DNA of 64,000 bases from Protoeuglena noctilucae (Eukaryota), in contig OY253685.1 in assembly GCA_958009085.1 (NCBI GenBank), positions 1 to 64,000 of the forward strand, read 5' to 3'. Shown piece by piece: positions 1-36,598 of this stretch. The translations under genes and the position numbers were made by a program. The notes under the pieces were generated by a model. It was not told the DNA's origin. It was given only the letters and a program-made list of their open reading frames with translations, and searched no databases. Numbering within the stretch: the stretch's first letter is position 1; each line of letters opens with the position of its first letter.

Positions 1-262
1 ACCCTAACCCTAACCCTAACCCTAACCCTAACCCTAACCCTAACCCTAACCCTAACCCTAACCCTAACCCTAACCCTAACCCTAACCCTAACCCTAACCC
101 TAACCCTAACCCTAACCCTAACCCTAACCCTAACCCTAACCCTACCTACCCTAACCCTAACGTGCCCTAACCCTTACCTGCCCTAACCCTAACCTCACCA
201 AAAAACTGCCCTAAAACCAAAAAAACCAACCTAACCCAAACCTAACCTACCCTAACCCTAAC
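1..262. repeat. Telomeric repeat array (CCCTAA)n = (TTAGGG)n, chromosome left end
   Basis: Perfect CCCTAA tandem from 1 to ~143, degenerate copies to 262, then an abrupt switch to unique coding DNA. Confidence 0.97.
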
Positions 263-3200
263 GACCGAGATGGCGGTGGCCGCGGGGTCGAGGCTCGCGA
301 TGTCGGATCCCATGCCGATGATGAGGAGCACGCCGTCGAGAAGCAAACGGGGGAAGCCGGCGACGCGCTCCTCCCTGTGCAGGACGTACATGGTGCCGGC
401 GAAGAGCAGGCACAGGGCGACCTCGACGCCGAGGAAGACGGCGATGTTGGACGCGATGGCCTGGAGCGCAAAGACGAAGGTCCCGATGACGGGGGTCACG
501 CTTAGGAAGTAGGCGCCGCTGAGGCCGAGGAGGAAGAAGCCGACCGTGTGGATGGGGGTGAGCGACGGGTCGAGGCCGTCCTCGCTGGCCAGCGCCAGGA
601 TCAACGCTGCGACCTGCGAGCGGGTGATTTACGAGGTTGAATTTGCCAGCCGAGCCGACAGCACAGCGCGCCTCCCCGCTTCGTCCCCCACCTCCAGCGC
701 CAGCCCCGAGACCAACAGCGGGGTATATCCGGAGGTGCGGAAGGCCATCGGGAGACGAAGCCAGCCACCCATGCCGCCGTCGGGCCAGAGCCCCAGGCGC
801 CACGCCGCCGTGGCCGTGAGTGTGCGGCCGTACCACCGCCGGAAGATGAGGAGGTTGGCCAGCACCCTGAGGCTGTCGAGAGCGTCGTACACATACGGCG
901 GCGTGGTGACCACGTACGTGCCCTGGGACACGAGCCGCAGGGCGAGAATGGCGACGTGGCCCGCCGTCAGCCCCGCCGCAGCCCTGCGAGGGAGGGCGAG
1001 GATGGGGGGCGTGTTGCGGGTGGCGGCCACATGCTGCGGGCGTGGGAACGGCAAACGATCGCCCCTGCGGGTGCGCTCGCGGCCACCCACCAGGTCCACG
1101 CCGACCGCCGCATGTCGGCGCAGACGAGCGCGACGAGGAGCATGGCGTAGAGGGCCAGGTAGGCGTTAAACACGCGGCCGTAGACAAAGAGCCATTTGCA
1201 CTCGACCAGCGTCGACAGGACGGGATGCCTGCGGGAGAGACAGGTGAGAAGGGTCCGTGCCTCGGCGATCCTAGCTCTTATACGCCCGGCAAAGGATGTG
1301 GTCCCTCACCCGGCCATGTCGACGTCGCCCTCGAGCGCCACGACCTCAAAGAGGGTGTCCACGTTGTCCAGCAGCGTCGAGTTGGGCACGTCCACTGGGC
1401 GGTAGTCGATCATGACCTGGCGCAGGCCGGCGGCGTCCTGGGAGTCGGTGCTCGTCACGAGCCCGTCGAGGGCCTTCATGGCGGCGGGGGCGTGCGCGGC
1501 TCGGAGGCGCACGAGGGGCAGCAGCTCGAGGCCGGAGCGCGTGCGGGGGGCGGGGGCGCCGGAGGGCAGGGGGGGGCAGAGCATGCGGGCAATGTCTGTG
1601 GCGGGGAGGCGGTCGGTGAGGACCGCGAGGCTCTCCGGGCGCCCGCGCTCGGCCGCCTCGACGGCGACCAGAAACGGGCGTCGCCCGCGCGTGTCTGGGC
1701 GCATGAGGTCGACACCCATGTCCACCATGAGCTCAACGACGGCGTGCATGCCGGCCGAGATGGCGCAGGAGATGAGGGGCTGCATGCAGTCGCGCCCGTC
1801 CCCCGCCGGCCACATGGCGTTGCGGTCGAGGCCCCACGTCAGCAGCTGGCGCAGATATGCCCCCTGCTGCTCCACGGCTGGCACGGGGGCCACGCCGAGG
1901 GAGCGGAACTCCTGGGTTGGATGAGAGGCTTGGGGGGGTGACAAGGCTGGGGGCCAACATGACGCTCTGACCCATGCGCTGGATCGCTGCAGGCCCTCAC
2001 CCGGACGCGGAGGCGGTGGGCCCCCCTCCCCAGGAACCCCTCCACGACGCGCTCGAGCGCCGCATTGCCCCTCAGGTCCCTCTCGTACTCGACGTCCTTC
2101 AGGCCCCAGTGCTCGGCTAAGAGCATGCGTACGACCGCGATGCTGGAGGTGGCGATGGCGTGGGACAGCATCTCCTCCCGCGAGCACCCGGCCGCCACGA
2201 AGGCGCGGCAGACGTTGACATGGGAGAACTGGGCGGCCAGGAGGGCGGGGGAGCCACGCCAGGTGACGAGGAGCGCGGCGTCGACGTCGAAGGACGCGGG
2301 GCGCAGCTCCCCCTCCTCGAGGAGCTCGGTGGCATTGGGGTCGAAGACGAAAGAGTGCGGCACTCCCTGCGACAAGGGGGAGGGAGGCAGTCGTGACCTG
2401 GGTGGGTCGGGCATTGCCTGAGCAGGCGCAGCGGTGGAGAAAGGCGCAGCGGCTCTGCAGCATGGCCTCCCCTACCTAACAGAAAGACTGCAGTGCCCCA
2501 CGAACGGCCCACCATGTGCCTCACCAGGTGCAGCAGCTGACGAACGACGTCGTCCTCGCCGTTGGCGACGGCCATCTGCATGGCCGCGAGCGCAGGCCAG
2601 GCGTAGGCGTCCTGGATGGGATGACTGAGGGCCAGGCTGCGCTTGCCGTCCTCGATCGCCGCCATCAGCGCGATGTGCATCAGGTCAAAGTCCTTCTGGT
2701 GAAAGCAGGCGCAGAGCCGGCGGAAGAGGCTCTGCGAGGCAGTGGGTGACTTGAAGTCAAGACTGCTTGACACAGCGACAGTCACGGCCGAGCGTCTTGC
2801 AAGGCCCAACAGCTCCGTCATCTCCCCCAGGCATGTCTCACCATGCTGTGCTCCGGGGCTGGAGGCACGGCGTCCGCAACCTTGTTCGGCTGCCACAGGG
2901 CTGGGAGTGTCTGCTTGGACAGGTACCTGCGGCAAGGGAAGCACCGACAACCTCCACAGGGGCACGCTGTGCGGGTGGCCCATCACCGCCCACCGCAACG
3001 ACCCCACGCGCACCGTTGGACGGGCGTTGGCTGCTCGTCCTCGCGGCCGAATGCCCACTGGACCAGGTGGTCCAAGTAGTCTCGTCTGCGGGTCTCCAGG
3101 GGCACGGGGGAGACACCGAGGAACTTGACATCCTGCGCAGGGATGGAGCGGAAGTGGGTGGAGTGGCAGGGTGGCAACCCGCAACGGCCCGCGTGCCATC

Positions 3201-5570
3201 TGCAGCCCTCGCCTGGTCGTTGAGCTGCAGGGCGGCAGCGAGCTCGTTGCCGTCCTGGGTGGCGCGGTCGGCGCCCCACTTGTCGAGGATGCCCGCCGCT
3301 GCCGACCGCATCTCTGCCCACGACGCCTCCCCGACCCTGACCTTCCGCTCCCTCCGCAGCAGGGTCTCGACCGTGCCACGGCATGAGGCGGCCGCCGCCG
3401 CCCGCACCGCGTCCTCGACCCTCGCCCCCGCGGCCAGCATGGCGTCCAGGACCTCGGGGCGCTCATAGACGACCGCCGTATGGAGGGGTGACATGCGCCA
3501 CAGCAGCGGGGCGCTGACGGACTCGGGCAGCGCCGCCAGGAAGAGGCTGGGCGTCAGGTCGTGCATGGAAGAGTATGCCAGGGACGGGGGCACGCCCTGC
3601 GGGGGAAAGCCGACGCGTTGGCGACGCGCAGAGGCGATCGGGCGGTTCTGCCAGGCCGGCGCAGCCTCACCAGCTTCAGCAGCCACTGCACGACGGCCAT
3701 GTCCCCCTGAGCCGCCGCCACGTGCATGGCAGCCACCAGCGCCCAGTCGTCCGGCACCCCTGCCTCGCCGTCAGCATCCCGAACGGGCTGGGCATCGAAG
3801 GCGCGCTTCTCAAAGGCCGGATCTGACACCACGCGGAGCAGAGCCCCCAGGTCGTGCAGCTCCAGGCACACGACCACGGCGCGGAACATGTCCTGCGAAC
3901 ACGGGTCCATGGCCAGGGTTGCAAGAAAGGATCAGCCAACGATAGCCTGTCCTTGCCCGCACCCATGCCTGTGCCCTTCCCCAGCCCCCACCTTCTCCCT
4001 CGCGCGCCGGTCCTCCTCCAGCGCCGCTGCCAGCTGCGCCTTGAGCAGCACCAGGGCGTCGTCGATCTGCGATCAAGGCGATTCAACGAGTGGGACGCCA
4101 CTCCTCGGTGCCTCACAGGGCCGGCCCCTCGCTGCACCCGCCCACGTCTCGCCTTGGCGTCCAGGTCCGCCTCAGCCTCCCCTCCCAGGAGCTGCAGCGA
4201 GGAGATGCTGCGCGCCAGGTCGGCGACGGCCCCCCCTAGCGACAGCATCTTCTCCACGCCGTCGCGCGCCACCCGCACCAGCACCTCCCTCAGCTGCCGA
4301 CGGCCACCCGCCAACGCATCGCCCAGCTGCGCGAGCAGGTCGCGCGCGCCCGACAGCAGCCCCGGGCGCATCGCACCCAGCCGCAACCCCACCGCCTCGA
4401 GCAGCGCCGCAAACGCGGCCGCCGAGGACGCGCGACGGTCCGCACCCCGCCGGCGCTGCGACTCGGAGCGCTCGATGACGCCCCCGGCCGCGGCCTCGGG
4501 GGCCGGGGGGGGCGGGGACACGGCCGCGCACAGCAGCAGCACGGCGCGCGCGCACTCGGGCGACGACCCCGCCACGGCTGCCAGCCGCGCCAGCTGCGGG
4601 AACCCCGCCCGTTGCGCGCAGCCCTCAGCCGCGGTCTCTGCCGCCGCGACGACGCGCGACGCGTCCCCTGCGCTCCGTGCACACGCCAGCGCCCGCAGCG
4701 CCTCGTCGTCGTCGTCCACGTCGGCCTCCGTCACCCCCCGGGCCCACGGGGGGCCCAGGTCGGGAGCCTTGGGGCCCGACGTGTGGGGCGCCGCATGCCG
4801 GCCAGGGTGAGGCGCGCGAGACTGCGCCAGGGGAGGACTGACGGGAGGCAGCGGGGATGACTGCGATGAGACGGCCGAAGGTGCAGCTACGTCCGTGCTC
4901 CCCGACTCGTCGCCTGCTGACTCCTGCAAGGGTGGCAAGGACACCAAGAAGAACATCAGATCACTCAGGGACGTCCCGACACTAGCCTGCCATCGCGCCT
5001 TCGCCTCACCGCGGGGTCCGGGCCGCGCTGGCCCAGGGTGCGTGCCGCGACGGCCTTGAGCTCCGCCTCGATGCCCCGCATGTGACCGAGCAGGCCTCGG
5101 ACGCGGACCTCGTGTTCTTGGGGGTCTGACGAAGTCGGTGCCGCAGCTCCCTTCGGCAAATACTCGGACAAGAGTGTTTCCGCCTCGCGCACCAGTGCCC
5201 CGAGCGCCGCGGCTGGGCCCCGCGGCCCAGATGTCGCCGACAAGGCCGCGGCCGACAGGTGCCCAGCCAGCCGCGCCATGCTCTGGGCCAGCGCGCGGTG
5301 CAGGGGGCTGACGTGCTCGGACGGCGCCTCTGCCAGCCTCCACAGCACCCGCGTCCCCGCCTGCGCCACCTCGGCCAGGTGCGGGGCGTCGCGGGACAGG
5401 TCGTCCAGCTGCGATGCCGCCGCCGACCAGGCGGCGCGCGCCTCGTCTGCGCGGTCGCCCGACCCCGGGTCCGCAGGGTCAAGTGGAGCAGCATCTCCAT
5501 GGTCGCCCGATGGCCCTGCGGGCGTGGCACCCGCGGCCTGCAGGGGCCGGAAGAAGCGCTTGCCCGCCAT
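263..5570 (-). CDS. Ankyrin-repeat TRP-like cation channel, multi-exon, 3'-truncated by the telomere (possible pseudogene)
   Basis: Spliced reading gives ankyrin motifs (AMHVAAAQGDMAVVQWLL, SPLHTAVVYERPEVLDAML, DTRGRRPFLVAV), a pre-S1 motif GHPVLSTLVECKW (~1192-1229), hydrophobic S1-S4, an S4-S5 linker/S5 IGTFVFALQAIASNIAVFLGVEVALCLLFAGTMYVL and a pore LLIIGMGSD similar to TRPV TIGMGD. Joining the 4-5.6 kb helical exons to the ankyrin exons relies on in-phase splice sites and is less certain. Confidence 0.75.
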
Positions 5571-6171: not shown

Positions 6172-9100
6172 CTAGAGCTGCTCCTGGTCCACGGCCTCGA
6201 GGGAGAAGGGCACGAAGGCGTATCCGTCCCCGTGATAGAACTTGTTCTGGAACTCGACCCAGTGGAGACGCAGCGCGTGGAGGAAGGCCGACAGCGTCTC
6301 CATGACCATGAGGACGCCGAGCGTGGCGCACCACCAGGCGAAGGCGCCGATCATCTGGATGAAGGGGGACCGTCCCTGCAGCCCCAGCAGCAGCACGCGC
6401 TCATAGAACACGGCCGACAGCTGCGAGTGCGCCAGTGAAAGCGCCCACAGACGCAGGTACGAGGCTGGGAGAACAAGGGGAGGGAACGGGTGAGCGCCGG
6501 CTGGGCAGGATGCCTCCGCCACTCCCTGCACCCTGGTGCACCCCCGCATGCGCCCCTCACCCGTGTTGGAGATGGCTCCCAGGACGAACTCGATGGTGTG
6601 GATGATCTGGTGCACGAAAATCTCCCCGAAGTCAAACTCCTCCCCGTGCCCATGGCCGCCGCCACCTCCATGGCCGCCCCCGTGCCCGCCCCCGTGGCCG
6701 TTGCCGTGGCCATTCTCCCCCGCGCCGTGGCCGCCCGATCCCCTGCGCTCCGCCACCCCGTCCGCGTCGCCGTTGTCGTCGGCGTCGCGCGTCGGCTCGC
6801 TCGGGACCAGCAGGGACGCGTACGAGTTGCCACCGGCCATGTGGCGGGCGCGCAGGATGAGGGGCTTGGGCAGGAGCATCCAGGGGACGCAGACAAACAT
6901 GAGAAGGAGGAGGATGTTCTGCACGGCCCCCTGCCCCGCGAAGAGCTTGTTCTCCGGGCAGGTGCCCCCGCAGTCGACGTCACCGGGGGTGAGGAACCAG
7001 GCGATGAGGACATGGTAGAGGTCGATGGTGGAGCCGGAGACCCACTTGGCGATGATGAGGATGGAGAGGTACCCGAACATGGCCCAGAGGAAAAGGATCT
7101 CGGGGATGAACTGGTAGTTGATGGAGAGGCGGTCGTTGAAGTAGAGGTGGTTGAAGAGCGACATAAAGATGCCCAGGGACATGTGGGAGACGCCCATGAC
7201 GATGGACATCTTCATCTTGAACGCGTTGACGAAGGGCAGCTCGGTGCGCGTCCTGGGGGGGCGGGGGGGGGGGGGGGGGGGGGGGGCTCGGCGGTGAGGT
7301 GGCAGGAGCGGTGGCAGCGAGGTGGGGGCAAGCGGCGCTGGGCGGGCCGTCCCGCGGCGGGCAGGCTGCGGCGCGTCTCACGTGTGCCATGCCGGGTCGA
7401 CGCCGATGGGATACGGCAGCGTGCCCTCCCCCCGGACGAGCCCCGTGGACGCCCCGCCCGGGCACACGGTGAATCCCTTGGCGTTGACGACCAGGTCGTT
7501 GGGGCACTCGTAGTGGGACCCGCCGAAGAGCGTCATGGGCATGGAGAAGGCCTCGTTGTACATGAGCCCGGTGAAGAGGGAGAAGAGCCCCATGAGGAGG
7601 ATGACGTACCGCCCGCCGAACGCCATGTCGATCATCTCGTTGAGCTTCTGCTTGCCCATGGCCTTCTCGCGGAGGATGAGGAAGGAGGCGAAGAGGACGA
7701 GGAGGGCGCCGTGGAGGAAGTCGCCGAACATGACGGCGAACAGGAAGGGGAAGGTCACGATGGTGAAGACGGCGGGGTTGACCTCGCGGTAGCGCGCCAC
7801 GCCGTACGCGTTGACGATGGCCTGGAAGGCGCCCGTCCACTTGTTGGTGCGGAAGTGCGTGGGGGGCTCCTCCCGCGTGGGCAGCGCCTGGAACACGGTG
7901 CCGACGGAGGCGGGGGAGCGGGCGGCGGCGGCCACCACGGCCGCGTGCACGCGCCCCTTGGCCTCGACGGGGCACCAGGCCTCGGCCACGAGGGCCTTGC
8001 GCGTCACGTCGATGCTGAGCTTGTTGAGCGTGTGGTAGACGGCCTTCTCGCGCTTGACCAGCCGCACCCACTCGTCCATGTCCGCCCCGATGGACGTCAG
8101 CATGCCGCGGCGCTGGGCGGACGCGGCGCTGATGACCGAGTAGAGCTCGTTGATGCGGTCCGCCACGTCGCGGGCCATCTCCTGGCGCTGGGCAGGCTGC
8201 TCCGGGAAGGGGTAGCGCGAGGCGTTGAAGGCGTCGCAGATCTTCATCACCTGCAGAGGGGAGGGACGGGGGCGGTCGCACCAGCTGCGGCCAATTCCGC
8301 GCCATCACAACAACATTGACCCCTGTCGTGTATCTACCAGGACACCACCCGTCGCCGGCCGTCGCTGCTGAGCTGCCCCGGTGGTCCGTCCCACCCAACC
8401 GATGCATCCCCCGCATGTCCCCTGCCGCGCCGCACCTTGGCCCTGGCGCGGTCTCCGGCGAAGAAGACGACGAAGACGCTCTTGTCAACGAGCTCGCGCG
8501 TCTGGGGGTCGCGCAGCTGCGTGGCGATCTCCTTGCTCTGGAAGAACATGTTGCCGCGCGTGGCCCGGAAGAGGACGCGCTCGAGGGTGTCGAGCCTCTC
8601 CCGCGCCACGAGGCCCACCACAAAGCCCAGGCGGCCCTGGGCGGCGGGGTCGGCGTCCGAGGCGGGCGCCGCCAGCAGCGGGGAGGAGGGGGCATCGGCG
8701 CCGGCGGACGATCCCGTGGCGGCAGCGGAGGACCGCGCCATGAAGCGGACCTCGTCGAAGAATGCCCCCGCCTGCTTGAGCACGATCTCCATCTCCAGGT
8801 ACTCGTCGTACGTGCGCTCGAGGCGGTCGTTGTTGGCGTTGATTTCCAGCAGCTCCCGCTCCAGGGACTCGAGGCGGGACTCGAGTTCATCCAGGTCCAC
8901 GTACTGCGGGGGAGGGGCGGGGCAGGGCGGGTGACGCTCGCAGGTGGGCGGCAGTGACGATGCCGGTCACGGCCCCTCCCAGGTGGCGTGGCTGGCGTGG
9001 CTGGCGTCCGCGTCCCGTGCGCACCTTGGGCGATATCCTGCCCGCCGTGATGATGCCCTCCTTCTCGATCTGCTCGGTCAGGAAGCGCAGCTTGCGGGCC

Positions 9101-14437: not shown

Positions 14438-17400
14438 ATGATGGGGCCAGGGCTGGGTTCGGCCGGGCCTGGCGCCTTGCGGGCTCCGAGAAAGGCGGCC
14501 ACTTCATTCTTTGCCTTAGCTACACTGCTGACACTTCTCCGCGGGGCGTTCGCCGGTGAGGGCCGAGCGCGGGCTATGCAGGCGCATTGCCATTGACCTG
14601 CGCGCCGTCCCGCGAGCGCGCCCAGGCCCGCGGTGCCCCTCCCCCGCAGACTCGACGTTCACATCGTTGACGGTGTCCACGTGTCTGGCCCTGAAGACAG
14701 TCACGCTGTCTCCCGCGTTCGCCGGGGGGACGTCGGGCGGCACGAGCACCTTCACGGCGACGGTGGACCACGAGTGTTCGCTGTGGCAGCCGACCACGGA
14801 CGTGAACGGCAACTACACGATCACGTCTCCCTATTCGCTGTCGGCGTGGCTCACGTGGGCTTGCGTAGACCCGACCTGCGCGGTGGAGGTGGATCTGTAC
14901 GGGCCCAACCCCAACGGAGGGGCCGACATGGTCGTGGCCTCCTACCCGAGTTCATCGACCACGGTCACGGGCAACCAGACCAACTACCCCCCGTCAGGCC
15001 TGGCGCTGCAGACGGCGACGCAAGTGACGAGCACGCCCCCCACGTCCCCGCCCACCAGCAACCTCGTGGCTGTGGACGACGTCGTGACGCGGATCGACAT
15101 CCACAGCACCGTTTCTGGCGTCAAGACGACCTACACGCTCAACATCACCCGCCACGGAAGGTGCGAGCCGCGCAGGCGGGGCGCGCCGCTCGCAGCCAGG
15201 CCGCTGCGTGTGACGATGGTCGCTGACCAAACGGCTCTTTGTGCTCGGCAGGAGCTGGGACGACCTCTTGAGCAGCCTGGCGGTGCTGGACAGCTCGGGC
15301 GCGGCCTTCCCCACGACGCCGTACGCGTCGAGCGGCGTGCTGTACCAGGGGAGCTGCACGGCAGCTAACGGCACGTACGACAGCTCGGGGGTGACGTCGA
15401 CGACCGGGTTCAGTGCCACCGTGCTCAATTACGTCGTCGAGGTCCCCGACACCACCACAAGCGTCACGTGAGCGGGCGGCAGGAGCGCACGTGGCTCGCC
15501 GTCGCCACTGCGCCGCTCCCCTGAACGCCCCCCCGGTCGCCGCCCGCAGAGTCAAGGCTATCGGCGACACCATCGGCACGCTGAACGCCACGACGCTCTT
15601 CCAGCGCATCCTGATGTACTCGGACGCGACGGGCGCAGCCACGGGCTACTGCGGCAGCACGTGCCTGCACGGGTCGGACATCTACACGACGCCCGGGTGC
15701 AGCACCAGCTGCACCAACAACGTCACCTACTCCGGTCTCACGGCCACCTCGAGCACCCTGGCCGTGGCCCAGGGCGCGCTGGTCACGGTGAAGGTCCGCG
15801 TGGAGTCGCAGGCGTACCAGCCCCTGCAGACGTGCCCCAACACGACGTGCCCCATGTACAACAACAACGCGGCCTCGTACCGGACCTACACCATCCAGGT
15901 AAGGCAGCCGCCCGCCCGCTGCCGCCCGCGGCTGTCACCCGCCCCTCCCCTCACGCGACGTGCCTGCCCCGCACCCCCCGCAGATCCTGCGTCGGACCAA
16001 GAGCGCCAACGCGCAGCTGTCCGCGCTGGCCCTGACCCCCACCAGCACCGGGGACACGGCGCTGGCGCTGTCGCCGACGTTTGCGGGCGGCATGTACACC
16101 TACACGGCCCCGGCCTACTACCGGTCGTCGGCGCTCAAGTTCACGGCCACGGTGCCGGCGACGACGTTCCCCTACTCGGCCACGGACAACGTGAGCCGCG
16201 CGGCCATCACGGTGCAGGCCTACACGGACGGCACGTTCGCGACCACGTCGGGGTCGACGCTGACGCTGGTCAGCGGCACGCAGTCGACGTCGACGCTGCC
16301 CCTGGCGACGCCGACCGTGAGCGCCTCGGCGTCCACCTACCTGCGCGTGTCGGTGACGTCCGAGGACGGCAGCACCACCCACGCCTACCAGGTCACGGTG
16401 ACGCGTGCGGCGCCCAGCAGCGACTCGACGCTGTCGCAGATCCACCCGAGCGTCGGGTGGCTGGTGGCCGCGGCGCCCAGCGGCAGCTACCTGGCCGTGG
16501 TGCCCGCGTACCCCAAGGACGGCTACGGGGGGTCAGCCACCAACCCCGACAGCACGGCCACCGCGTACGCCTTCGCGGCGACGACCACCGCGTACCGACT
16601 GCGGTCGGACCACGGCATCCCCTACTACACGACGGTGATCAACACGGCGAACGGGGGCACGGCGGCCGACGCCATCACCATGACGGTGTCGCCGATGGGG
16701 GCGGCCACGGCGGGGGGCCAGGTGCTGTCGACGGCCACGGTCGGCGCCTACGACACGTGTGACCAGTACGGCGCCTGCACCAATACGGTGCTGGCGCCCT
16801 CGGCCGCGGCGGCGGCGTCCGGGACGGCGAGCGCGACCATCAGCATCCCCGCGTGCGCGTCGACCAACTGGCCGGTGCCGTGCACGACGCTGATCAAGAT
16901 CACCGTCTACGCCGAGAGCTACTCCCTCGACAACACCAAGACCACCACGTACTCCCTCTACGTGGACCGCGCCCCCCAGGTGCCCACGGACGACCAGTTC
17001 CAGGACCTGTACCAGATGCGCATCAACAACTTCGCGACGGAGATCAGCGGAGCCAGCGACCTGACGGGGGCGGCCGCGCAGTCCCCGACCGCGGCCTGCA
17101 GCAGCGGGGGCAACCTGACCACGGTGACGATCAAGGGCACGGGGGCCAACCTCTTCACGGCGGGGAGCAGCCTGCAGCTGTACCTGGAGGTGGACGCGGC
17201 CAAGTGGGCGGCGACGTGGGTGACGGCGAAGCAGACGGGCGTCAACAACCACAACAACGGGGGCTGGACGGCCGTGGCGACCGACTACTCGCAGATGCCC
17301 CGGCTGCTGTTCAACGTGTCCGTGTCGGGCGCCAGCACCCCGACGATCGCGCAGCAGTCGCTGCCGAGCACGGGGACGGGGCTGTACGGCAACTGCCCCG

Positions 17401-20400
17401 GCATGGCCGTGTGCAAGCAGGGGTGGTGCGTGGCCGACGCGACCGTGTCGGTGGCGGACCCGAAGGGGTCGGGGCTGCAGGAGTGCAGCAAGACCATCTC
17501 GCTGACGCAGCTGCTGACGGCGTCGGGGTCCTACAATGCCTCCGCCACCTCCACGGCCTCGCTGTCCGGGGGGGGCACGTCGGTCAAGGCCGTGCACGTG
17601 ACGGTCAACGCGGCGGGGACGACGGCCGTGGACGCGTGCAACGCGCAGGTGACCTTCACGGTCGCGTACGGGCAGATGAGCCTGCCGTCCTCGGCCGTGG
17701 GGCTCACGGAGGTGGGGTCGCGCGTGGCCACGGCGGGGGCGCTGACGCTCACGGGGAAGGACCAGTACGGCAACACGGTCACGGGCACGGACCGGGCCTA
17801 CGCCACGGGGCAGGTGGCGGCGGCCGTGTGTACGCCGCGGCAGGGGCTGACGGACAGCACGGGCACCCTGGCACGCGCTTTGGTGGGGGACACGTCGGCC
17901 TTCCCGACCGTGTCGGACGCCAGCACCACCAGCCCCTCCCCGGGCAAGGTGGCGGCGACCACCCCGCCGCGCATGGCGGTGGACCGCGACGGCAATGTGG
18001 TGGTGGCGTGGGTGGACGACTCGTCCCTGACGCTGCCGGCCGTGGTGAGCGGTCAGACCACCACCGCCAGCGTGACGGGCGCCGTGCAGGTCAAGCGGTA
18101 CTCGGCGGCCCTGAGCGCGTGGCAGTCCATGGGCGCCTTCGCGTGCCGCTCCAGTGACACGGGCGACTACACCCCCGTGGCCGTCAACGGATTCGACCTC
18201 TACTCCACGCGCGCCCCCGCGGGGTCCTCGGCCGGGTACCCGGACGTGGTGCTGGCGTACACGTGCAACTCGCTGGTGTTCGCGTACGAGCTCGACGCCT
18301 CGGGCAACACCGCCACGTGGGCGCCCATGAGCCCCCAGTCGGGCAACTGGTCGTCCTCCGGCCTCTACGGTGCGCTGTCCCCCACCTGCAGCCCCAGCTG
18401 CGGCGGCACGGCGCAGGTGCAGGTGTCGTTCGGCACCGATGTGGTGGTGTGCCACCAGGAGCGGTCGGGCACCACGGTGAGCAGCACCGACATCAGCCTC
18501 ATGCCGTCGTGCTACCAGTACAACAGCCTCAACAAGCAGTGGGCGGCGCTGGGCCCGCGCGGCGTCAACACGACCGTCTTCACCACCGCCGGCCTCACCT
18601 GGTCGTCCGGCACCAACGGCACGGTCACGGCCGTGGCGGTCATCACGGGGGCCAACGCGGTGCTGCTCACCTACAGCACCGTCTCGCAGACGTGGGGCAC
18701 GGCCTACACGTTCTCGTCCACCAGCTGGACGTCGGTGCAGCTCTACCGCACCCGCGAGGCCACCCCACGGCTGCTTCTCATGGGGTTCGCATACAACTCG
18801 GCCAACCCCACGCCCCCGTCGACCCCGGCCGTTTTCAGCGTCACCACGGGCACGCCCTCGGCCGTGACGCTCCCGCACTTCTCCTCCACCTCCCCCTGTG
18901 CCGCCACGGGGTGCACGTACGCGGGGGTGTCGAACCCGGTGCTGAGGGACGACGCGTCGGGGCGGCTGATGCTCTTCGCGCAGGATCAGGGCAACAGCGG
19001 GCAGGTGGTGATGCTGCGGGACCTGGTCGACAACGAGTGGGAGGAGATCCACAACATCTTCAACCCCGGCTCCGACCTGGCCGTGGGCGAGGCGGCCCCG
19101 ACCGGCACGGCCATCTACGTCATGGCGCGGGGGTCCTTCTCGGCCAACACCTCCCTCGACCAGCACCTCCTCGTCAAGCGGCTGGGGTTCGCCGACCGCA
19201 CCGAGTCCAGCTGCAGCTGCCCCCGGGGCTACACGTGCGCGGCCCCCAGCGCCAGCTTCACCGCCAACGGCGACGGCACCTACTCCGCCACCGCCGCCCT
19301 CACCTCGGACGGCTGGAACCTCGTGTTCGTGCGCGCCAGCACCACCGCGAGCGACCTGGACCTCTCCGCGCACCCCACGGTTCTGACGGCGTGGGCGGCC
19401 CCGTCCGGCGGGGGGAAGGCGGCCACGTACCCCTACCACGTGCGCGTGACGCCCGGCGCCTTCGGGCAGGGCTCCACGATCCTCATCCCCAGCACGGCCT
19501 TCACGATCCCGTCCCCCTGGCCCCAGTTCTACCTCCTCCCCCAGGACGCGTACGGCAACCTGCACCCGACCGGCTACAGCGTGGGCAGTGTGGCGCTGGC
19601 CTCGGTGCTCTACGACACGACGAACAGCAAGGGGCCGGAGGGGCCGGACCACACGGCGTGGAGCGCCACGGCGACCTACGAGGGGTCGGCGCTGGGCGCG
19701 TACTCGGCCATCACGGTGGCGGCCAACACGGCCGACCTGACGCAGGTGGTGGTGAAGAGCTACCGCGCGGCCATCTACAACGTCGGCATCACCGTCTCCG
19801 GCACCGCCCTCACCAGCCCACGTGAGTGCCTGCACATGGATTGTATGTCGCCGCCACTCATGGTCGTCACGCCCAGCCCCTCCGCCCCTCCCTTGCGTGC
19901 TGATCGATCCGTCTTCCCTCTCCCCGCAGAGAGCTTCCTCCTCCGCGCGGGTGAGATCTCCGACTGGTCCACCGCCACCTACTGGCCGTCAACCGCCAGC
20001 CCCGCGGGGTCGATTGTGGCAGGGGACCCCACGACCATCCTGGTGGACGCGGAGGACATCTGGCAGAACCCGATCAAGTACAACGATAACTCGGCCAAGC
20101 TGGCCCTGCACGCGTACATCCTCGACAGCGCGACCAGCCCCACGTGCCAGCCATCGGGGGGCGCCGTGACGTGCGCGGCCGTGTCGGCCACCGCCCTGGC
20201 CGCGTCGGTGGCGATGGACCCGAACGCCCGCACCAACGGGCGACTGGTGGTGTCGTTCACGGCCCCCACCGACGCCTCTAAGGCGTACGGCTTCCAGGTG
20301 GTGCTCACGGGGCTGACCAGCACCGACCTGGACGTCAACGGCGTGGCCAACACGGCCAAGATCGGGCGGGTGCTGCCGTGCGCCGGGTGCACGGCGAGCG

Positions 20401-23400
20401 GCGTGGGGAGCATGCTCAACGCCTCCAACCTCACCCAGCGCATGGTGCAGATCCAGGTCAACCCCAACGTGCCCGTGCCCGTGTCGACGCTGCTGGACTA
20501 CGCCACGTCGCAGGTGGCAGGCAAGGTGCAGTTCAAGCTGTCTCCCAGGGACGCGTACGGCAACTTCAGCCCCACCACGCGGTGGAAGCTCGTCGTGACC
20601 CCCACGGCCATCTCCGCCGACGCCGGCCCCGCCCCCGCGGGGGTGCCCGACACCAAGACGGCCATCGTGTCCCTGTCGCCCTTCACGGACGCCTCGGGGC
20701 AGGCCGTGGCGGGCACGCAGCTCTTCGACTTCACGCAGGCGGGGAACCAGAAGCTGGTGCGCATCGGCACCTACCAGCTCACCATCTTCCTCCAGAGCCT
20801 GACCGACCCCAGCTCGTATACGCAAACGTCCGTCACGGCCAACGGCGTCGTCATCCCCGTCCCCGCGGCCTCCTCGGGCGGCTCCGGCTCCACCCCCGCG
20901 CCCACCTCCACCCCGCCTCCCACCATGTCGCTGACCGTGGTGCCCGACCAGCCCAGCGGCAACTCGACCGTGTCGAGCCTGCCCGCGCTCATCCGCGTGG
21001 GGCAGCAGATCGTGCTGTACATCGGGGCGGTCGACCAGTACGGCAACCGCATCCGCACGGGCGGGCAGCTGGCCACGGTGGCCGTCAAGCTGGTGAACCT
21101 CAACGACCCGTCGGTGGTGGTGACCGCGTCGGTGGCCGACAGCGGGGACGGCAACTACATCGTGCAGTTCCAGCTGAGCCAGGCGGGCAAGTACCGCCTG
21201 ACGAGCTTCTTCAACGGCGTGCAGCAGCCGGCGCAGCAGGACGTGGAGGCCATCGCGGCGGGGCAGCCGTCGGGGCAGGTGGCGAGCGTGGTGTCGCTGC
21301 CGGCCGTCGGGGGCATCTACGTGGCGCAGGTCGACGAGCCCTTTACGGTGGCGCTGGTGGCGGACAAGACGCAGCCGCTGGCGCCCCAGGCAGCTTTGAC
21401 GGTCACGGCCACGCTCAAGTTCCAGGCCAATGGGGGCACGCAGGAGCAGGCGGTGGCGTTCGGGCAGATGAACGCGCAGGGGCGGTGGATGGCCACCGTC
21501 ACACCCCAGGCGTCGGGGGTCTACTCCATGGAGGTGTCCGTGGGGGGGTCGCCCGTCTTCGGGTCGCCCTTCGCCATCCAGGCCCAGAGCCGGCGCGCCC
21601 GGTGGCTGGCCGCGGCCAAGGCGGCGTCGGCGTCGACGACGTGGGTGCCGCCGACGATGGAGGTCGAGACGCTCGCGAGCAGCTCGCTGACCGCGGGGGA
21701 CACCCTCACGCTGTTCGTGAACCTGCGCGACAAGTTCGGCAACTCGCTCACGGTGCAGCCCCGCCAGGAGGCGCGCGTGTACCTGGTCCGGCAGTCCGAC
21801 AACACCATTCTGGACCTCGACCTGGCCACCTCGGACGCCACGGGCGGCTGGGGCTCCCCCTCCACGACCCACGCGGTCTTGCGCGCCCAGGCCACGCTCA
21901 CGGTCCCCGGCACCTACTCCCTCTACGCCTACTTCCACGAGCTCCGCGTCTGCAACCCCGGCAAGGCCGTCTCGTCTCTCGACGCCTCCAAGCTCCCCTG
22001 CCTGCCGGACATCACGGTGGCGGCGGGGGCGCTGGACCTGACCCAGACGACGCTGTTCGGGTCGGGGGTGGCGGACGGCACGGTCGGGGCCACCATGGAC
22101 GTCCGCATGCACCCCCGCGACGCCTACGGGAACATCCTGCCCGCCACGGCCGGGTCGGCGCTGTCGGCCAAGCTCACCGTCTACGGCCCCTTCGCCACGC
22201 TGGCGGCCGCGCAGGGCATCAACAAGGTCTCGGCATCCACGCTCACCGCGTCGCCCGTGGCCATGACGTACTCCTCCGCCGACCGCACCCTGGTCGCCCA
22301 GTACTCCGCCACGGGCGCGTCGGCGGTCGGCTACTACGTGGTGGACGTGGGGACGTACAACGCGAGCGGCACGCGGCTGGCGCAGGTGGGGTCGGACGTC
22401 GTCGTGCACCTGTCCCCGGGGCTGCCGTACTACAACGCCGGGACGCTCGCGGCGCCCTCGTGGGCCGCGGCCACGTCGACGTGCGCGGTCCAGGCGGCGA
22501 GCGTGTCGGCGGGGGAGCAGAACCAGCTGACGGTGCGGCTGCGGGACGCGCAGGGGGTGCCGACGACCTGTCGTGGGACGTGGACGTGGTGCAGGTCACC
22601 CCCTCGCGCGAGACGCTGTCGGTGCGGGCGGCCAACCTCACGGTTGCGCGGGTGTCCACGGACCTCAGCGCCTACACGGTGGCCTTCCAGGGTATGCAGG
22701 CGGGCACGCACACGCTGCAGCTGTGGGTGGGTGGCGTGCAGGCCACCGCCAACGGGTGCCCCGCGTCGGTCACCGTCACGGCCGCCCCCCCCGACCCCGC
22801 GTGGACCTTCGCGTACGGGGAGGCGCTCTCACGGGTCAAGGCGGGGGACACGGCGACCGTGTACGTGCGCCCGGTGGACCGCTTCGGCAACCAGGTCACC
22901 AGCAAGGCCCAGGTCGACGCGGTCGGCCTCACCTTCACCCTCGAGCGCCAAACGTACAGGGGCCTCCCCGCCGACCTCCCCGACTCGGCCCCCGCGTACG
23001 TGTGGCTGGCGGACCCCGCCGTCTACCAGGTGCAGTTCACGGCCAAGGTCGTGGGCCGACTGCAGCTGCGGGCCGAGCTGGGCGGCACTTCGCTGGGCAA
23101 CATGCCCGTCACGCCCGTCATGGTCCCCGGGGACCCGTACCTCCCCAACACGGTGGTGTTCGGGGGCGGCGTGCAGGCCGGGTCGGTGTCCGCGCAGGCG
23201 TCCTTCACCGTGGAGCTCCTGGATGCTTATCGGAACCCAGGCGTGGCCGCCGGGCAGCCCGTGTGGGTGGAGGTGGTGGCAGCGGACTCGGCCACGCGGT
23301 CGGCCATGCTCACCTCCAACAGCTCCCTCGTGGTGGCGCCCATCGTCACCGAGACCTTCCGCGGGTACTACAGCGTGCAGTACAGCGTGCCCGTGCAGGG

Positions 23401-26400
23401 CAACTACACGGTCACGGTGCTGTACGGCACGTCGGTGGTGCAGTCGTACTCGGTGCAGGTGGGGGACGGGTGCATCGGGCCCACCACCTCCGCGGGCGCC
23501 TGCGCCGTCAAGGACATCAACACGTACGTGCCCAGCGCGGCCAACTCAAAAGTGGACCCTGTGATGCGCGACACGGTGGCGGGGGTGCGGCAGGAGGAGG
23601 TGATCATGGCGGTGGACGAGGTGGGCGCGGGGTCGTCGCTGCAGGCGGGCGGCAGCGCCAGCTCGTTCGTGGCCGTCATGTGGCTAGACGACGGCGTGTC
23701 CACGGCCAACAGCCCCACCTACTCGGCCAAGGCCACCACGCCCCTCACCGTCACGCCCTCGAGCCCCCTGTACCTCCTCAACTACAACAACGGCACCTTC
23801 TCCCTCAACTACGCCCCCACCAAGGCCGGCAAGTACTTCATCGACCTCTTCGGCGCCGACGGCTCCACGCCCGTCTCCCTCCCCACCTCCGTCACGCCCA
23901 ACAGCAACCTCTCCTCCTACCCCCGCACCGTCGACGTCTTCCCCGCCGCCACCGACGCCACCAAGTCGACCCTCAGCGCCGCCACCCCGCTCCCCTCGGG
24001 GCTGGCGGCGGGGAAGGCCTTCGACATCCGCGTGACCCCCCGCGATGCGTACGGCAACGTGCAGACGGGGTTCGGGGACCACGTCATGGTCTTGCTCGAG
24101 GGGCAGTCGGGGCAGGCGACGGGGATCACGTTCGAGTACGACCTGTCCCGCACCCACGCCGACTACGCCGCCAAGGACTACGACTACAAGGCCACGGTGC
24201 CGGGGCTGCAGCAGGCGGGGCAGTGGCGCGTGCGGGTGTTCATGGTGGCGGCGGACGGGAGCCAGAAGCTGCTGGCGGACGGGCAGAACAAGGCGGCCGA
24301 CCAGACGGTGTTGGTGACGGCGGGGGCGGTCAGCCCGGGGGCGTCCTTTGTGCACGGCCCGGGGCTGCAGGGCGGCGTGGCGGGGCGGCAGCTGGAGGTG
24401 TTCGTGGAGGTGCGGGACCAGTACCTGAACCCCATTGACATCACGGGCATGGCCGCCACGCCCGCGCCCACCCCCGCGCCCACCGCCAGCGCCACCCCGG
24501 CGCCGACCGCCGCCTCCACGCCCGCCGCGACCGCTGCAACCCCTTCCGGCCCCTACCTCCCCGACTGCACGCTCACGCTGGTCCCCCGCGCCGCGGACGG
24601 CACGAGCCAGGCCCTGTCGGCGTGCGGGGGGTCGAGCGTCACGTGCATGGTGGTGTCGCAGCGGTGCCTCACGGGCGTGGCCGGGAGCTCCAACGTCGCC
24701 CGCATCCCCTTCACCCCGACGGCGGCGGGCACCTTCGACGTGCACGTGACGCTGACGTCCGGGGCCGTGGAGGCGCGCGGCAGCCCCGCGTCGGGCATGG
24801 TGGTGACAGCAGCAGTGCCGGACGTGGGGAAGAGCTCCGTGGACGCCACGACGCTGACGGGGTTCACGGTGGGCACCCGCGCCACCATCGTGGTGGACGT
24901 GCGCGACGCGTTCGGCAACGTGGTGTCGGCCAGCAGCAGCGTCAACCTGGTGGCGCAGGTGGTGTCCGCTGCCGGAGGGGCCACGTCGTTACCCGCCGCC
25001 GTGCAGGGGTCGCGGTTCGCCTTGACCTGGACCCCCAAGGCCGTGGGGTCCGCCACCCTCAACGTGACGATCGGTGGCGTGGCCATCACGGGGTCGGGTG
25101 CCAAGCTGACGGTGGCGCCGGGAGCCACGTCGGCATCGCAGAGCTACGTGCAGCGGCTGGACGGCGCGGACCTGAAGCTGGCGGCGGCAGGCGCGACGGT
25201 GTCTGCCGCCGTGTACGTGGTGGACGTGAACGGCAACCCCCAAGACCCCTCCCAGTCCGACACGGTGACGGTGTCGCTGACGTCCCCGACGGGCGGTCAG
25301 GGATCGGTCATCACGCCGACGGTGTCGGCCCCGCGCAAGGACGCGAGCGGCGCCGTGCTGAGCCCGACCAGCTACCTGATCCAGTTCAGCATCAACACGG
25401 TGGTGCGCCAGCCGGACGCCACCGTGTCGCCGTACACGCTGACGGTGCAGGTGAACGGGGCCAACGTGAAGGGCTCCCCCTTCAGCGTGTACCCGTACTC
25501 GTCGGTGGCATCGGGTGCGCAGTCGTACCTGGTGGACGGCACGACGGGCGCGAGGGTGACGGGCACCACGACGCTGACGGCGGGGCAGGCGTCGCACGTG
25601 ACGGTGCAGCTGGTGGACGCCAACGGCAACCAGACGGTTTACGACCCCACGCGGACGCAGCCGACGGTGACGGCCACGCTCTACGGCACGCTGGCCGACA
25701 CGCCCGGCAAGGGCGTGGTGTACTCGACCGAGGCGACCGTGGCGGTGCCGGCGGGGCAGGGCGGGGATCTGGCGGGGACCACGGCGACGGTCCCAGCGTC
25801 CAACAAAGTGACGGCCACGGACGACCGCAACGGGCGGTGGACGCTGACGCTGACGCCGCTGCAGACGGCGTCGCTGGTGCTGGTGGTGTCGGTGGGGGGG
25901 TCGGCCATCAACGGGGGCGCCTCCTACGCCGTGACGGTGGCCCCGGGGGTGGCAGACGTGACGCGGTTCACCCTGGCGCAGGCGTCGGGGTCCACCGCGC
26001 CCCTCGTGACGTCCGCGCTGGGGGCGGTGGCCGCGCCCGTGGCGGGGCAGCCCGCGTGGGCGGTGGTGCAGCCCCGCGACGGCCAGGGCAACCTCATCAC
26101 CGACGCCTCGGCCTTCACGGTGCTGGCCACCGTGTCGGTCACCACAGGGACACCCCTCGCAGGGTACACCACGCTCACCGCCGCGGCAGGCGACGTGTCG
26201 CTGTCGACCCAGACCGCCGCGGGCACCGGCGACGGCACCAACGTCCCCAGCGTGCTGTCGTGGCAGGCGGGGCAGGCGGTGCTCAAGTTCAAGCCCCCCG
26301 CCGCGTGCCGTGCGGGCACCACAGGGTGCCTGTCGCTGACGCTGCAGGTCAGCTTCAACGGGCAGGTCACGTCCGCGCCGCCCATCGCGCTCACCGTGGC

Positions 26401-29400
26401 GCCGGGGGCTGTGGCGGGGCTGGCGGTGTCGGGTCCGGGGTCGTACGGTGCCATCTTATCGGATGCATCAGCCGGGCTGACGGCCACGGTGGTGCCGGTG
26501 GACGCGTCCGGCAGCCCCGTGGACAACCTGTCGAGTTACCCCGCCGTGACCGTCACGTCGGCCAAGATCATGCTGGCGGACGGCACCGTCACGACGGCGG
26601 CGGCGGACGTGTCTGCGACGGTGACGGCCGCGGACGCCTCGTGCAAGTGCTACACGCTCACGTGGAAGGCGGCCAAGGCGGGCACGCTGTCGCTGACCCT
26701 CGAGTACGAAGCCACCTCTGGGATCAAGCCCACCGCCACGCTCACTGTGGCAATCGCATCGGCCCTGGGTGGCACGACCACGGGGCCCATCGACGCTGAC
26801 CTGGCGGAGATCGAGGGTGACCTGGGTGCCGAGGCCGGGCAGTCCGGGACCTTCCGCGTGGCTCTCTTTGCGCTGGCGGCCGGCACGTCGACCATCGCCG
26901 ACCCGGCCAGCACCAGCGGGGCGAAGCTGGCGTGCAGCGCGCTGGTGGGGCGCGCGCAGAAGCTGGCGGGTGGCTGCCGCGGCCCGCGCATCAACAGCAA
27001 GCAGACGAGCGTGACGGTGACGGCCACGCTGGACCAGACCACGGCGCTGACGGTGACGCAGGGGAACGACGGGATGCATTCCGTTGCTTACAAGCTGAAG
27101 TCCGCGGGGCAGCACTACACGAGCCTGCGCGTGACGGTGGGCACGGCAGCCCCCGCCAGCGTGCAGGGCTACAGCCAGGCGGCCATCCCCCGCGTGTACT
27201 CGGGCCCGCATGCCTCGTGGACCACGCTGCTCTACGACCCCGTGACCATGGCGGTGCTGCCGGCGACGCAGTCCACGGCGCCGGGGTACGTGGGCGTGCC
27301 CTTCACGGTCGACTACGTTTCCACCGACGCGTACGGCAACGCGGTGGACGGGCAGCTGCACGCACCGCTGGTCGCGCAGGTCAAGCTGACGCTGCCGGAC
27401 GGGTCCACGCAGGGCGTCGTGGCCGCCACGCCCTACACGTCCGCCGTGGCCCCGGGCGTGGCGGGGGTCACGGGCGCGCTGGCCCTGGGCAACCTGCCCC
27501 CCGCGCAGGTCACCGTGTCGCGGCTGCAGTACCGCCCCACGGCCCTCCACGTTTACTCCGTCTCCGGCTACCTCTCCACCAACACGTCCCAGTCGGTCGG
27601 TCGCTCCGTCAGCGTGGACGTCGGCCCGGGTCTCCCCTCCGTGGCCAAGTCGTCCGTCGCGGGCACGTCCGTCGAGTCCGCGCTGGCCGGCACCACCGTG
27701 CAGTTCACGGTCGCGCTGGCCGACGACGCCGGCACCCCCCTCTACAATTTGTCCGCTCCCCGCCAGCTCGTGTCGCAGCTGCAGGCGGCCCCGTCTGCCG
27801 TCAAGACCTCCCTCAGCTACGAGGCGCAGAAGCTGGTGGCCACGCCGGCGACGAACGTGCTCACGCAGGCGGTGGTGTCGGCCCAGCTCATCTACCCCGA
27901 CGGCACCAAAGTGACTGTACCGGTGTCGTACAACGCGTCCCTGAGTGCTTTCCAGGGCGCCCTCACGTCTCAGAAGGCAGGCACGGCGTGGCTGGACCTG
28001 CAGGTGTTCGGGCAGGACTTCCTCCCCGTGGGGGCGTCCGGCTCCGTGGTGGTGCAGCCCCTGTCGCTGAGCGGGGCGACGTCGTTTGAGGCGGGGCCAG
28101 CCACGGGGACCATGGGCACCCTGGCGGCCAACAAGGCCGCGGGGATGTACGTGCAGGCGCGGGACCGGTACGGCAACGACATCCAGGCGGGTGGTCTGTC
28201 CTTCCAGGCCTCCGCCACCCAGGTCATCGGCAATCGCGTGGCCGGGGCCGCCAACCCCTCGCTGCTCACCATGCAGCCGGCTTCGGTCACGCTGGCGTCG
28301 ACGGACCTGGCGGACGGGCAGTACCTGCTCTCCGTGACCATCCCGATCACGGGCAGCTTCAACCTCACCGTGCAGCGGGGGTCGGAGCAGCTGTCGCCCT
28401 CCGCCACGCCCTACATTGTCGACACGGGGTCGGGGGCCATGGCGGGCGCGCAGTCGACCGTCGGGTGCCCCGCGACGCTAGGGTCCGGGGAGCAGTGCGC
28501 CGTGCCTGCCACTGCCCCGTTGCCCAACGGCGCCGTGGTCCCCGGCCTGACGCTGCTGGCGGGCGTGCCGGCGCTGGTGGTGGTGAGCGCGCGCGACGCG
28601 GCGCAGGTCCCCACGCTGGGCACCGCCGAGGACATCGAGGTGTATTTCTCCGCGGGGTCAGGAGAGACGGAGCTGGCGAGTGCCAAGTCTCTCATGGACA
28701 CGACCACCACGCCCGCCAGCCACGTGGGTCAGTTCCAGGCCACCTTCACGCCGCTTAAGGCTGGGCCGCTGGTGCTGACGGTGCGGCAGCGGGGCACCAC
28801 CTGGCGCGTGACGGGCACGGTGGTGCCGGGCGCTATGAGCAACACGCAGTCGCAGGTGGCGGTGGCCACGTCCCCATCCGAGCCGGTCTACAGCACGGGC
28901 CGGCAGCCGCAGCGGGTCACAGTGGCGGCCTACGACGCCAACGGCAACCGCGTCACCAGCGCCGCGCGGGTCCCCGACACAGTGTATGTGGAGCTGCGCC
29001 CGGACGACGGCTCTTCGTCCGGCCGCGTGTTCAGCGCCGCCTCTGCTCTGGGTAATGGGTACTTTGCGATGGCCTACGAGACGCAGGTACCCGTGGTGTG
29101 CCACGTGTTCGGTCGGATCGGGGAGCAGGGCACCGGGTTCGGCAACGTGCCGCTGCAGGTGGTGGCGGGCCCGGCCGTGCTGTCCAACACGGTGGTGCAG
29201 GGGTCGGACTTCGCCGTCAATCAGCTGTCGTCCACGACCGCGGGGCAGGCGTCGACCATGTACGTGAGCCTGCGGGACATGTTCAACAACGTGCGCATGC
29301 AGGGGAGCGATGTGTACGGCCACAACGATGCCTCCGTGCCGCCCTCGCCCTTCCTCCCCTCGGCCTCCATGGTCCTCCGCATCACGGGCGTCCGATCCGG

Positions 29401-35400: not shown

Positions 35401-35973
35401 TAACCCACCCCTTCTTCCCCCCGCAGCCCTCGTCGGGCGGATCGGTCAACGCCGCCGTGCAGTGGCTGTCGACGCACGCGGGTGCCGTGGCGGGCATCGC
35501 GGTCGCACTTGCCGTGGTGCTGGCGGCTGCCACGGCCGCGTTCGTGGTCGTGCAGCGTCGCCGCCGCCGTGTGCGGGTGGTGCCGGAGCCGTCGCCGCCC
35601 TCCAAGCCAGAGAGCATGGAGGTGAGGGTGGGTGGGGTGGTTGCTGTCACTCTCATTCGTGCGCAGCACTGCCCTCTTGACAGTGCCCCTCTGTTTCAAT
35701 GCCTCGCGGTGCCACTACTGCCCTTGCCTCACTGCCTGGCTGTGTCGATGCCCAACTGTGTCATTACTGCCTCGTTACCGTCTCACCCCCCCTCCCCTTC
35801 ACTCAAACACGCAGAGCAAGGCGGTGGTGGCGGTGGCGGTGGCGAAGAAGGAAAGCAAGGAGGTGTCGCTGGTGGGCAACGAGGACATGTACCTGCCTGG
35901 GACGCCTAAGGGGGCGAGGAGGCCGCGGGCATTCGAGTACTCGGACTCGGACTCGGACAACGACTATGTGTGA
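14438..35973 (+). CDS. Giant (~6,700 aa) type I membrane protein: signal peptide, cadherin-like beta-sandwiches, putative beta-propeller, ~25 filamin/Ig-like repeats, PKD/REJ-like region, single TM; frameshift near 22567
   Basis: Signal-like FFALATLLTLLRGAFA; motifs such as ANAQLSALAL...LSPTF; about 25 D-x-(Y/F/N)-G-N-type repeats with GSPF motifs; APTVIGVCDDLVVDASGS and later REJ-like segments (~31900-33690); TM AVAGIAVALAVVLAAATAAFVVV followed by RRRRR; short acidic tail. Approximate introns: 14556-14649, 15161-15250, 15467-15549, 15899-15983, 19822-19929, 33998-34160 (GC), 35048-35169, 35288-35425, 35622-~35814. Confidence 0.85.
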
Positions 35974-36598
35974 GGGTGTCTCATCTCTTGTGGGGAGATC
36001 AAAGAGAGTGGGGTGGGTGGGCAGCGAGTGGGATGGGCCCTGGATGTGGATGCAGTCGACTGTGTCTGGGCTCACCACGACAGCGACTGTGGCTGTGACG
36101 CGTGATCGAAGTGATCCAAGTGATCGGAGTGATAGGAGTGTTATGTGGTCAGTTCCCTTTCCGCCACTTTCTGACACTGACATGTGGCGGTGCCCGGCGC
36201 GGGATGGGGAGCAAGGTGGTGGGCGGTGTGGCATAGACAATGGTTGATGCGGTAGTTGGCGGGACTAGATGGGAGAGGGACAGTGCCTGGCATGGGGTTA
36301 GCTATCGCGTCTGTGTGGCGGCATCTGCTGCCGCGCGGGGGGATGCCGGGTTGCAGTCTCCGATCCCTGTTCTTGCCCCCATGATTTTCGTTCATATGAT
36401 ATGATATGCGAGTATCTAGAGCCACAAGGGTGGTTGGGCGGCGGTGGGCCGACTAGTGGGTGCCCGGCCGGGCACGCCTGATTTGAATGGTCGTGATATG
36501 ACGATGATCAACTGAAGACAGAGCAAACCATACTAAGAGACACAGCTGCGTCGCTGGCCTGTCTCGATGTCGTGATCGTGGATGCGCATGCTCTCCCC

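Follow-up and report, generated by a model that had tools for sequence, protein, structure and literature searches.

The window analysed here, the first 64,000 nucleotides (nt) of contig OY253685.1 of Protoeuglena noctilucae (GenBank assembly GCA_958009085.1), starts in telomere repeats that run directly into the last exon of a minus-strand gene for a putative pore-loop channel. The best explanation, to which we assign a probability of about 0.7, appears to be that this is a genuine chromosome end, where a terminal deletion reached into the final exon of a gene specific to its lineage and the stump that remained received a telomere cap, that is, chromosome healing. The observations that carry this reading are the geometry of the junction, its presence in other samples, the persistence of the reading frame and of the codon bias up to the junction, and the existence of a relative, the 143 amino acid (aa) protein P0003, that continues beyond the corresponding position into a long hydrophobic helix.

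Both direct reading and TRF place telomere repeats at the window from base 1 on, with the 3' end of the G-strand pointing outward, which is the terminal orientation. The outer part is a perfect (CCCTAA)n array at positions 1 to 144, with the C-strand on the plus strand, as expected of a left chromosome end; TRF reports a repeat of period 6 over 1 to 194 (33.5 copies, 90% matches), and an alignment of 1 to 145 with the perfect repeat gives 143/145 matches. The array is followed, at 145 to 262, by a degenerate telomere-like tract of 118 nt that consists of variant and shortened units, with T/A runs, a few G-containing units and small indels. An alignment of this basal tract with the perfect repeat has 133 columns, of which 101 match, 15 are mismatches and 17 contain gaps, a divergence of about 24%. 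The two units that adjoin the junction are perfect repeats by direct reading; beyond these first two, the regular succession of repeats from the junction outward that a fresh addition would give is not found. The irregularity of the junction-proximal repeats speaks against a recent event, not against healing as such.

Unique DNA, with a GC content of about 69%, starts at position 263; for comparison, the pelagophyte Pelagomonas calceolata has TTAGGG telomeres and a mean GC content of 63-64% (PMC9481584). The last base that can be assigned to the gene, on the minus strand, is the G at this position, which possibly is also the last G of the repeat. Accordingly, the junction shares at most 1 nt with the telomerase template, which is compatible with seeding by telomerase but carries no information. 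The minus-strand stop-to-stop frame at 242 to 628 reads ...LLIIGMGSDIASLDPAATAISV, followed by VRVRVG and a TAG stop codon (the same frame is also quoted as ...FPRLLLDGVLLIIGMGSDIASLDPAATAISV before VRVRVG and TAG), so that the exon ends in AATAISV|VRVRVG*, where AATAISV is derived from the gene and VRVRVG is encoded by the telomere. On the minus strand, the DNA across the junction is TCG GTC GTT AGG GTT AGG GTA GGT TAG; the six codons at 245 to 262 specify VRVRVG, and the stop codon at 242 to 244 comes from a variant telomere unit. A canonical repeat read in the frame of the gene would yield (VR)n with no stop, and the termination codon arises through a frame shift caused by a shortened variant unit (GGGTAGGTTAGG).

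The direct abutment of telomere and exon had been noticed in a previous interpretation made from the letters alone (hereafter the sequence-only reading), and the letters and coordinates quoted there are correct. Several of its details come out differently. The absence of a subtelomeric buffer holds insofar as subtelomeric DNA, whether unique or repeated, is missing, but the degenerate repeats do lie between the gene and the perfect array. Likewise, the stop codon was rightly located in the telomere tract but is supplied by the shortened unit, not by the canonical repeat, and the purported register of the GT|TAGGG junction comes down to the single ambiguous G at 263.

The GC content at third codon positions (GC3) in the frame of the gene is 0.90-0.97 between positions 615 and 256 and drops to about 0.5 once the telomere is reached. 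Together with the alignment of P0003 to the last gene-derived residue, the high GC3 indicates that the last exon is genuinely coding as far as the junction. An exhaustive HMMER search of 1.84 billion representative proteins produced four matches at E<=0.001, namely P0001, which is the window exon itself, P0003, P0002 and P0004. P0002 and P0004 were dropped as relatives, as they align only to query residues 7-36, via repeated segments. This leaves P0003 as the sole relative of the pore exon among the 1.84 billion representatives; it is a fragment found on 3 Logan contigs, the longest of 7.5 kb, and shows 49-55% identity to the window exon (55% over query residues 25-107). Protein searches with the pore exon and with the ankyrin/linker exon yielded no longer or full-length relatives, which are weak negatives. 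The family is rare.

The alignment with P0003 extends to the last gene-derived residue of the window exon, a valine that corresponds to V108 of P0003, after which P0003 continues VLLLFQSLQFIVLVSVPFIA. The AlphaFold2 model of P0003, which has a low mean pLDDT of 59.8, contains helices at 2-22, 24-62, 72-84, 89-92 and 101-130, an order that in this low-confidence model resembles S4, the S4-S5 linker with S5, the pore helix and S6 of a channel; the protein ends 13 residues past the modelled S6 helix. Since the window gene stops just inside the helix that corresponds to 101-130 of P0003, the telomere appears to remove S6, the last pore-lining helix, in agreement with what the sequence-only reading had proposed. 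By this comparison, the window gene would retain about 8 of the approximately 30 residues of S6 and nothing beyond.

The junction is found in other data. Among 23 public sequencing runs listed, four (X4, X6, X7 and X8) were examined. In the marine metagenome X6, contig rec5 (1428 nt) spans positions 200 to 1562 and extends 65 nt further to the left; in X7, a second metagenome sample, contig rec8 (542 nt) spans 200 to 689 and extends 52 nt further to the left. Both match the window with no other letters and no gaps and are identical over 200 to 262, so the degenerate tract is real sequence and not read noise; both break off close to the perfect array or slightly within it, as is unavoidable in k-mer assembly. 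No loose contig end at 263 is present in X6 or X7 among those listed (4 loose ends were left out of the listing). In addition, P0001 is the same 120-aa open reading frame (ORF) with the VRVRVG tail and with TTG taken as its start. It is recorded from 15 contigs, of up to 374 kb, and is alone in its 90% cluster. The direct junction is thus reproduced by two contigs without a difference and by an ORF on 15 contigs: the junction and the degenerate repeats are real DNA in several samples, and not read noise, a chimera or an accident of culture. Runs of a named organism (coded A), which come from a different study, contain 99% of the words sampled from 200 to 3200. In the metagenomes of JGI, a pattern search gave 200 matches, none of which was confirmed, and the 28-mer flanking the junction had no exact matches.

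Upstream of the junction, the gene shows no obvious decay, as far as an ab initio model can tell, which is in line with the sequence-only reading. The model was obtained with a simple dynamic programming procedure of our own that scores GC2 and GC3 (the GC content at second and third codon positions) and allows GT-AG introns of 40-400 nt. It comprises 16 exons with 1231 open codons, which begin with an ATG at 5570 and end with the TAG at 242-244, and 15 GT-AG introns, most of them of the form GTG[AG]G...CGCAG; confidence is lowest for the first four exons, at the 5' end. In the last exon, the portion derived from the gene (263 to 613, minus strand, as is the entire gene) is predicted to encode an S4-like helix, the S4-S5 linker, S5, the pore helix, a GMGSD loop and the first 8 or so residues of S6. 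This exon is joined to those upstream by three short introns (1309-1229, 1090-984 and 691-614) that have matching signals and correct phases and are recovered by the dynamic programming model. The predicted intron at 614 to 691 (78 nt, GTGGGG...CTCGCAG, phase 0) is preceded in the gene by an exon at 692 to 983 which, judging from the splice model, hydropathy and GC3, carries the hydrophobic segments of the S2-S4 region. Next upstream are a predicted intron at 984 to 1090 (107 nt, GTGGGT...CTCGCAG, phase 2), an exon at 1091 to 1228 that is assigned, by the splice model and hydropathy, to the pre-S1 region and the S1 helix (...ECKWLFVYGRVFNAYLALYAMLLVALVCA...), and another predicted intron at 1229 to 1309 (81 nt, GTGAGG...CCCGCAG, phase 2). 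The remainder of the gene body, 1310 to 5570, includes 12 more predicted exons with divergent ankyrin-like repeats, as suggested by the ab initio model, the periodicity of GC3 and sub-threshold Ank matches.

Under the healing scenario, the ancestral gene would have run on into S6 and a C-terminal tail. A terminal deletion would have ended within what is now the last exon, with the loss of everything distal, and the centromere-proximal end would then have been capped by telomerase acting on a 1-nt seed. This event would be older than the divergence of the sampled ocean populations, and hence fixed or widespread. It does not appear to be recent, because the junction is common to several samples and the basal 118 nt have diverged by about 24% from the telomere repeat. 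The sequence-only reading had envisaged a recent break; this is contradicted by the recurrence of the junction with the same degenerate repeats in X6 and X7, by the 15 contigs that carry the ORF, and by basal repeats that are not clean. The contrast between an undecayed gene body of 5.3 kb and strongly degenerate basal repeats suggests that these repeats mutate very fast, as is known for basal telomere repeats in other organisms, that their initial synthesis was irregular, or that the stump is still under selection.

The state of the tract also bears on how the end was capped. Instead of de novo addition, the break could have been repaired through telomere capture or break-induced replication, with a different chromosome end as the template, or through recombination with an old telomere, in which case the tract would be a copied basal telomere. 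With 101 of 133 columns matching, T/A runs and indels next to a perfect outer 144 nt, the tract indeed fits old basal repeats better than fresh synthesis. However, decay in place of fast-mutating basal repeats gives the same pattern, and two perfect units lie directly on the junction. Furthermore, the de Bruijn contigs of X6 and X7 pass through 200 to 262 and a further 52-65 nt unbroken, which, given how assembly graphs behave, speaks for a tract that other chromosome ends in these samples lack; for this reason, telomere capture is ranked lower, and we consider it unlikely although not negligible. A still less probable scenario is a partial duplication, in which part of a channel gene was copied to the chromosome end, so that S6 was never present here and an intact parent gene resides elsewhere. 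Subtelomeres often hold partial gene copies, and a relative, P0003, does exist. Nevertheless, P0003 is only 49-55% identical to the window exon, no copy closer than P0003 was detected among the proteins searched, there is no paralog in the 64-kb window, and the stump has a complete 5' gene body, with about 1231 codons and intact splice signals.

The least credible of these alternatives, which is largely refuted, is that the chromosome broke recently in the culture that was sequenced, or that the contig end is chimeric or misassembled. The undecayed upstream exons and the codon bias that remains intact to the junction would fit such an origin, but the junction occurs with an identical degenerate flank in two further environmental samples, the tail-bearing ORF is present on 15 contigs, and X6 and X7 cross position 263 with no loose end among those listed there. 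Programmed fragmentation or DNA elimination, which also had been considered, was set aside: there is no sign of it, the telomere has canonical TTAGGG repeats, and bulk environmental DNA shows one stable junction.

Several points weigh against healing of a terminal deletion within a channel gene as the origin of this end. The DNA next to the junction is not a clean telomerase product, and the tract may have arisen in a different way. The evidence for a terminal position is that the contig ends in repeats, and short-read contigs cannot prove a physical end. X6 and X7 share a study with the sample flagged as the possible source, which limits their independence, and X4, a run of organism A, gave just 17-21-nt spurious pieces in unrelated contigs, probably as a result of filtering that took out the genuine contig, and is uninformative on the junction. 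Neither the protein searches nor those at JGI recovered an intact allele or orthologous locus, so that the break is inferred from one 143-aa relative, P0003. The channel identity is affected as well. No channel family was found in Pfam for the last exon, the exon at 692 to 983 or P0003 at E up to 10, and the PDB profile search returned no sequences at E up to 10. Foldseek gave nothing at E<=0.001 for the P0003 model, with NavRh, TRPV1 and TRPM5 as the best rows at E 0.92. In the exhaustive VIA fold search, the 50 rows shown have Z scores of 7.1-8.7; by the scale of the tool, Z values of 7-8.7 are middling for helical models, and the pLDDT of the model is 59.8.

By their titles, 49 of these 50 VIA rows are pore-loop cation channels or glutamate receptors, including Kv4.2, TRPV6, AKT1, TPC3, PKD2, CatSper, TRPV2, TRPC1/4, TRPA1 and KcsA. 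Kv, Nav, Kir and CatSper channels score as high as TRPs, so the channel subfamily is not set by the fold. The language-model features of P0003 are nearest to the PKD_channel/Ion_trans clusters (0.94; 198 of 256 features), and the ten best named matches all belong to one family set; an atlas search with the exon at 692 to 983 gave only scores of at most 0.78, to unnamed bacterial clusters. A simple Kyte-Doolittle scan of the predicted splice model shows peaks at residues 217-235, 245-263 and 333-351 as well as an S4-like segment at 377-395. These hydrophobic segments sit where a channel with six transmembrane segments (6TM) has S1, S2 and S3/S4, and they are followed by the S4-S5 linker, S5, the pore helix and the GMGSD loop. 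Among the ORFs upstream, of which 8 of 88 were chosen for the search, matches to Ank, Ank_2, Ank_3 and Ank_4 have E values of 0.02-0.3, below the curated cut-offs of Pfam. In this predicted architecture, in which putative ankyrin-like repeats precede S1-S5, the pore helix and a loop of the GMG[SD]D type, the window gene would resemble the TRP and polycystin channels with N-terminal ankyrin repeats (TRPA1, TRPV, TRPC, PKD2); unlike them, it lacks S6, the TRP box and the C-terminus. The pre-S1 motif KW...F...YL also resembles, presumably, that of TRP-type channels. An ankyrin-like, 6TM pore-loop channel of the TRP/polycystin type is therefore a plausible working description, resting on language-model features, weak fold matches and the motif resemblance, and not a family membership backed by a hidden Markov model (HMM). 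The TRP channel named in the sequence-only reading is to be understood in this sense: features and middling fold matches make it plausible, and no exon tested has a Pfam match.

Another region of the window, 15903 to 34105 on the plus strand, contains two overlapping giant open frames of 2553 and 4608 codons, in which Ig repeats of the Filamin/ABP280 and GEX2 types occur. Close to the C-terminus there is also a REJ domain (E 1e-29 to 2e-30), as in polycystin-1/PKDREJ receptors. The ORFs just downstream of these frames (33936 to 36244) gave no match to PKD-channel, PLAT or GPS domains. A polycystin-1-like giant receptor is thus located 15 kb from the polycystin/TRP-like channel stump.

A pore-loop subunit that lacks S6 cannot line a pore, and the product of the truncated gene, if made, would be non-conducting; it may be null or dominant-negative, as the sequence-only reading had proposed. 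The stump is predicted to retain S1-S5, the pore helix and about 8 of the roughly 30 residues of S6, and it most likely is a non-conducting remnant or a pseudogene that still looks young. RNA run X8, a metatranscriptome, contains contigs over much of 604 to 5535; the 8 of 14 that are listed all align colinearly to the genome, predicted introns included, as exemplified by rec16 (604 to 1263), which spans the introns at 614-691 and 984-1090 unspliced. No splice joints were reported in X8 and no listed contig covers 200 to 603, a gap over the last exon that is not evidence of silence. These contigs may represent carried-over DNA or pre-mRNA and show neither mature mRNA nor silence. The 15 predicted introns (614 to 5530, minus strand), which are retained in all listed X8 contigs, are short (53-278 nt), lie within 5.3 kb and are very uniform in their GTG[AG]G...CGCAG signals. 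One of the X8 contigs (depth 3.4) is one base short at 1932, in a G run (1931 to 1937) of a predicted intron, which could be either an error in homopolymer length or a polymorphism.

Any transcript that reaches the end of the chromosome would carry UUAGGG repeats, and its protein would end in VRVRVG. Telomeric repeat-containing RNA (TERRA) is transcribed from the subtelomere toward the chromosome end and contains UUAGGG repeats. The would-be transcript of the window gene has the same orientation, a likeness of geometry only, with no RNA seen over 200 to 603. It is conceivable, but improbable, that the stump is kept and expressed, either as a non-conducting ankyrin/voltage-sensor-like subunit that modulates a P0003-like paralogue or as a promoter that drives TERRA-like UUAGGG transcripts into this telomere. 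If so, the retained function would account for the intact look of about 1231 codons and 15 splice sites beside repeats diverged by about a quarter.

Healed chromosome ends are known from human terminal deletions, from Ascaris and from ciliates. Further examples are chromosome-end repair in Plasmodium falciparum (PMC5550746) and de novo telomere addition in yeast (PMC10055226). Gene-truncating telomere addition at breaks is well documented, and the end described here is of a familiar kind, with no new mechanism. Like the known cases, it joins repeats in terminal orientation to unique coding DNA with an overlap of at most 1 nt, the distal part is lost, and the reading frame enters the repeats. 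Unlike them, it comes from a wild marine picoeukaryote and is common to several ocean samples, rather than from a culture line or a patient; moreover, the junction-proximal repeats are degenerate, and no intact allele was found for comparison. The window would offer a nucleotide-resolved, natural terminal deletion with a telomere cap in a GC-rich marine microalga, which can be used as a marker of that chromosome end. It also calls for caution in annotation, given that the gene model finishes in telomere-encoded codons.

Finally, the window contains several simple repeats, namely a G homopolymer of 32 nt at 7255 to 7286, a 30-nt tandem repeat at 38797 to 38943 (4.9 copies, 97% matches) and a (CACAG)n microsatellite of 15.8 copies at 45341 to 45420.

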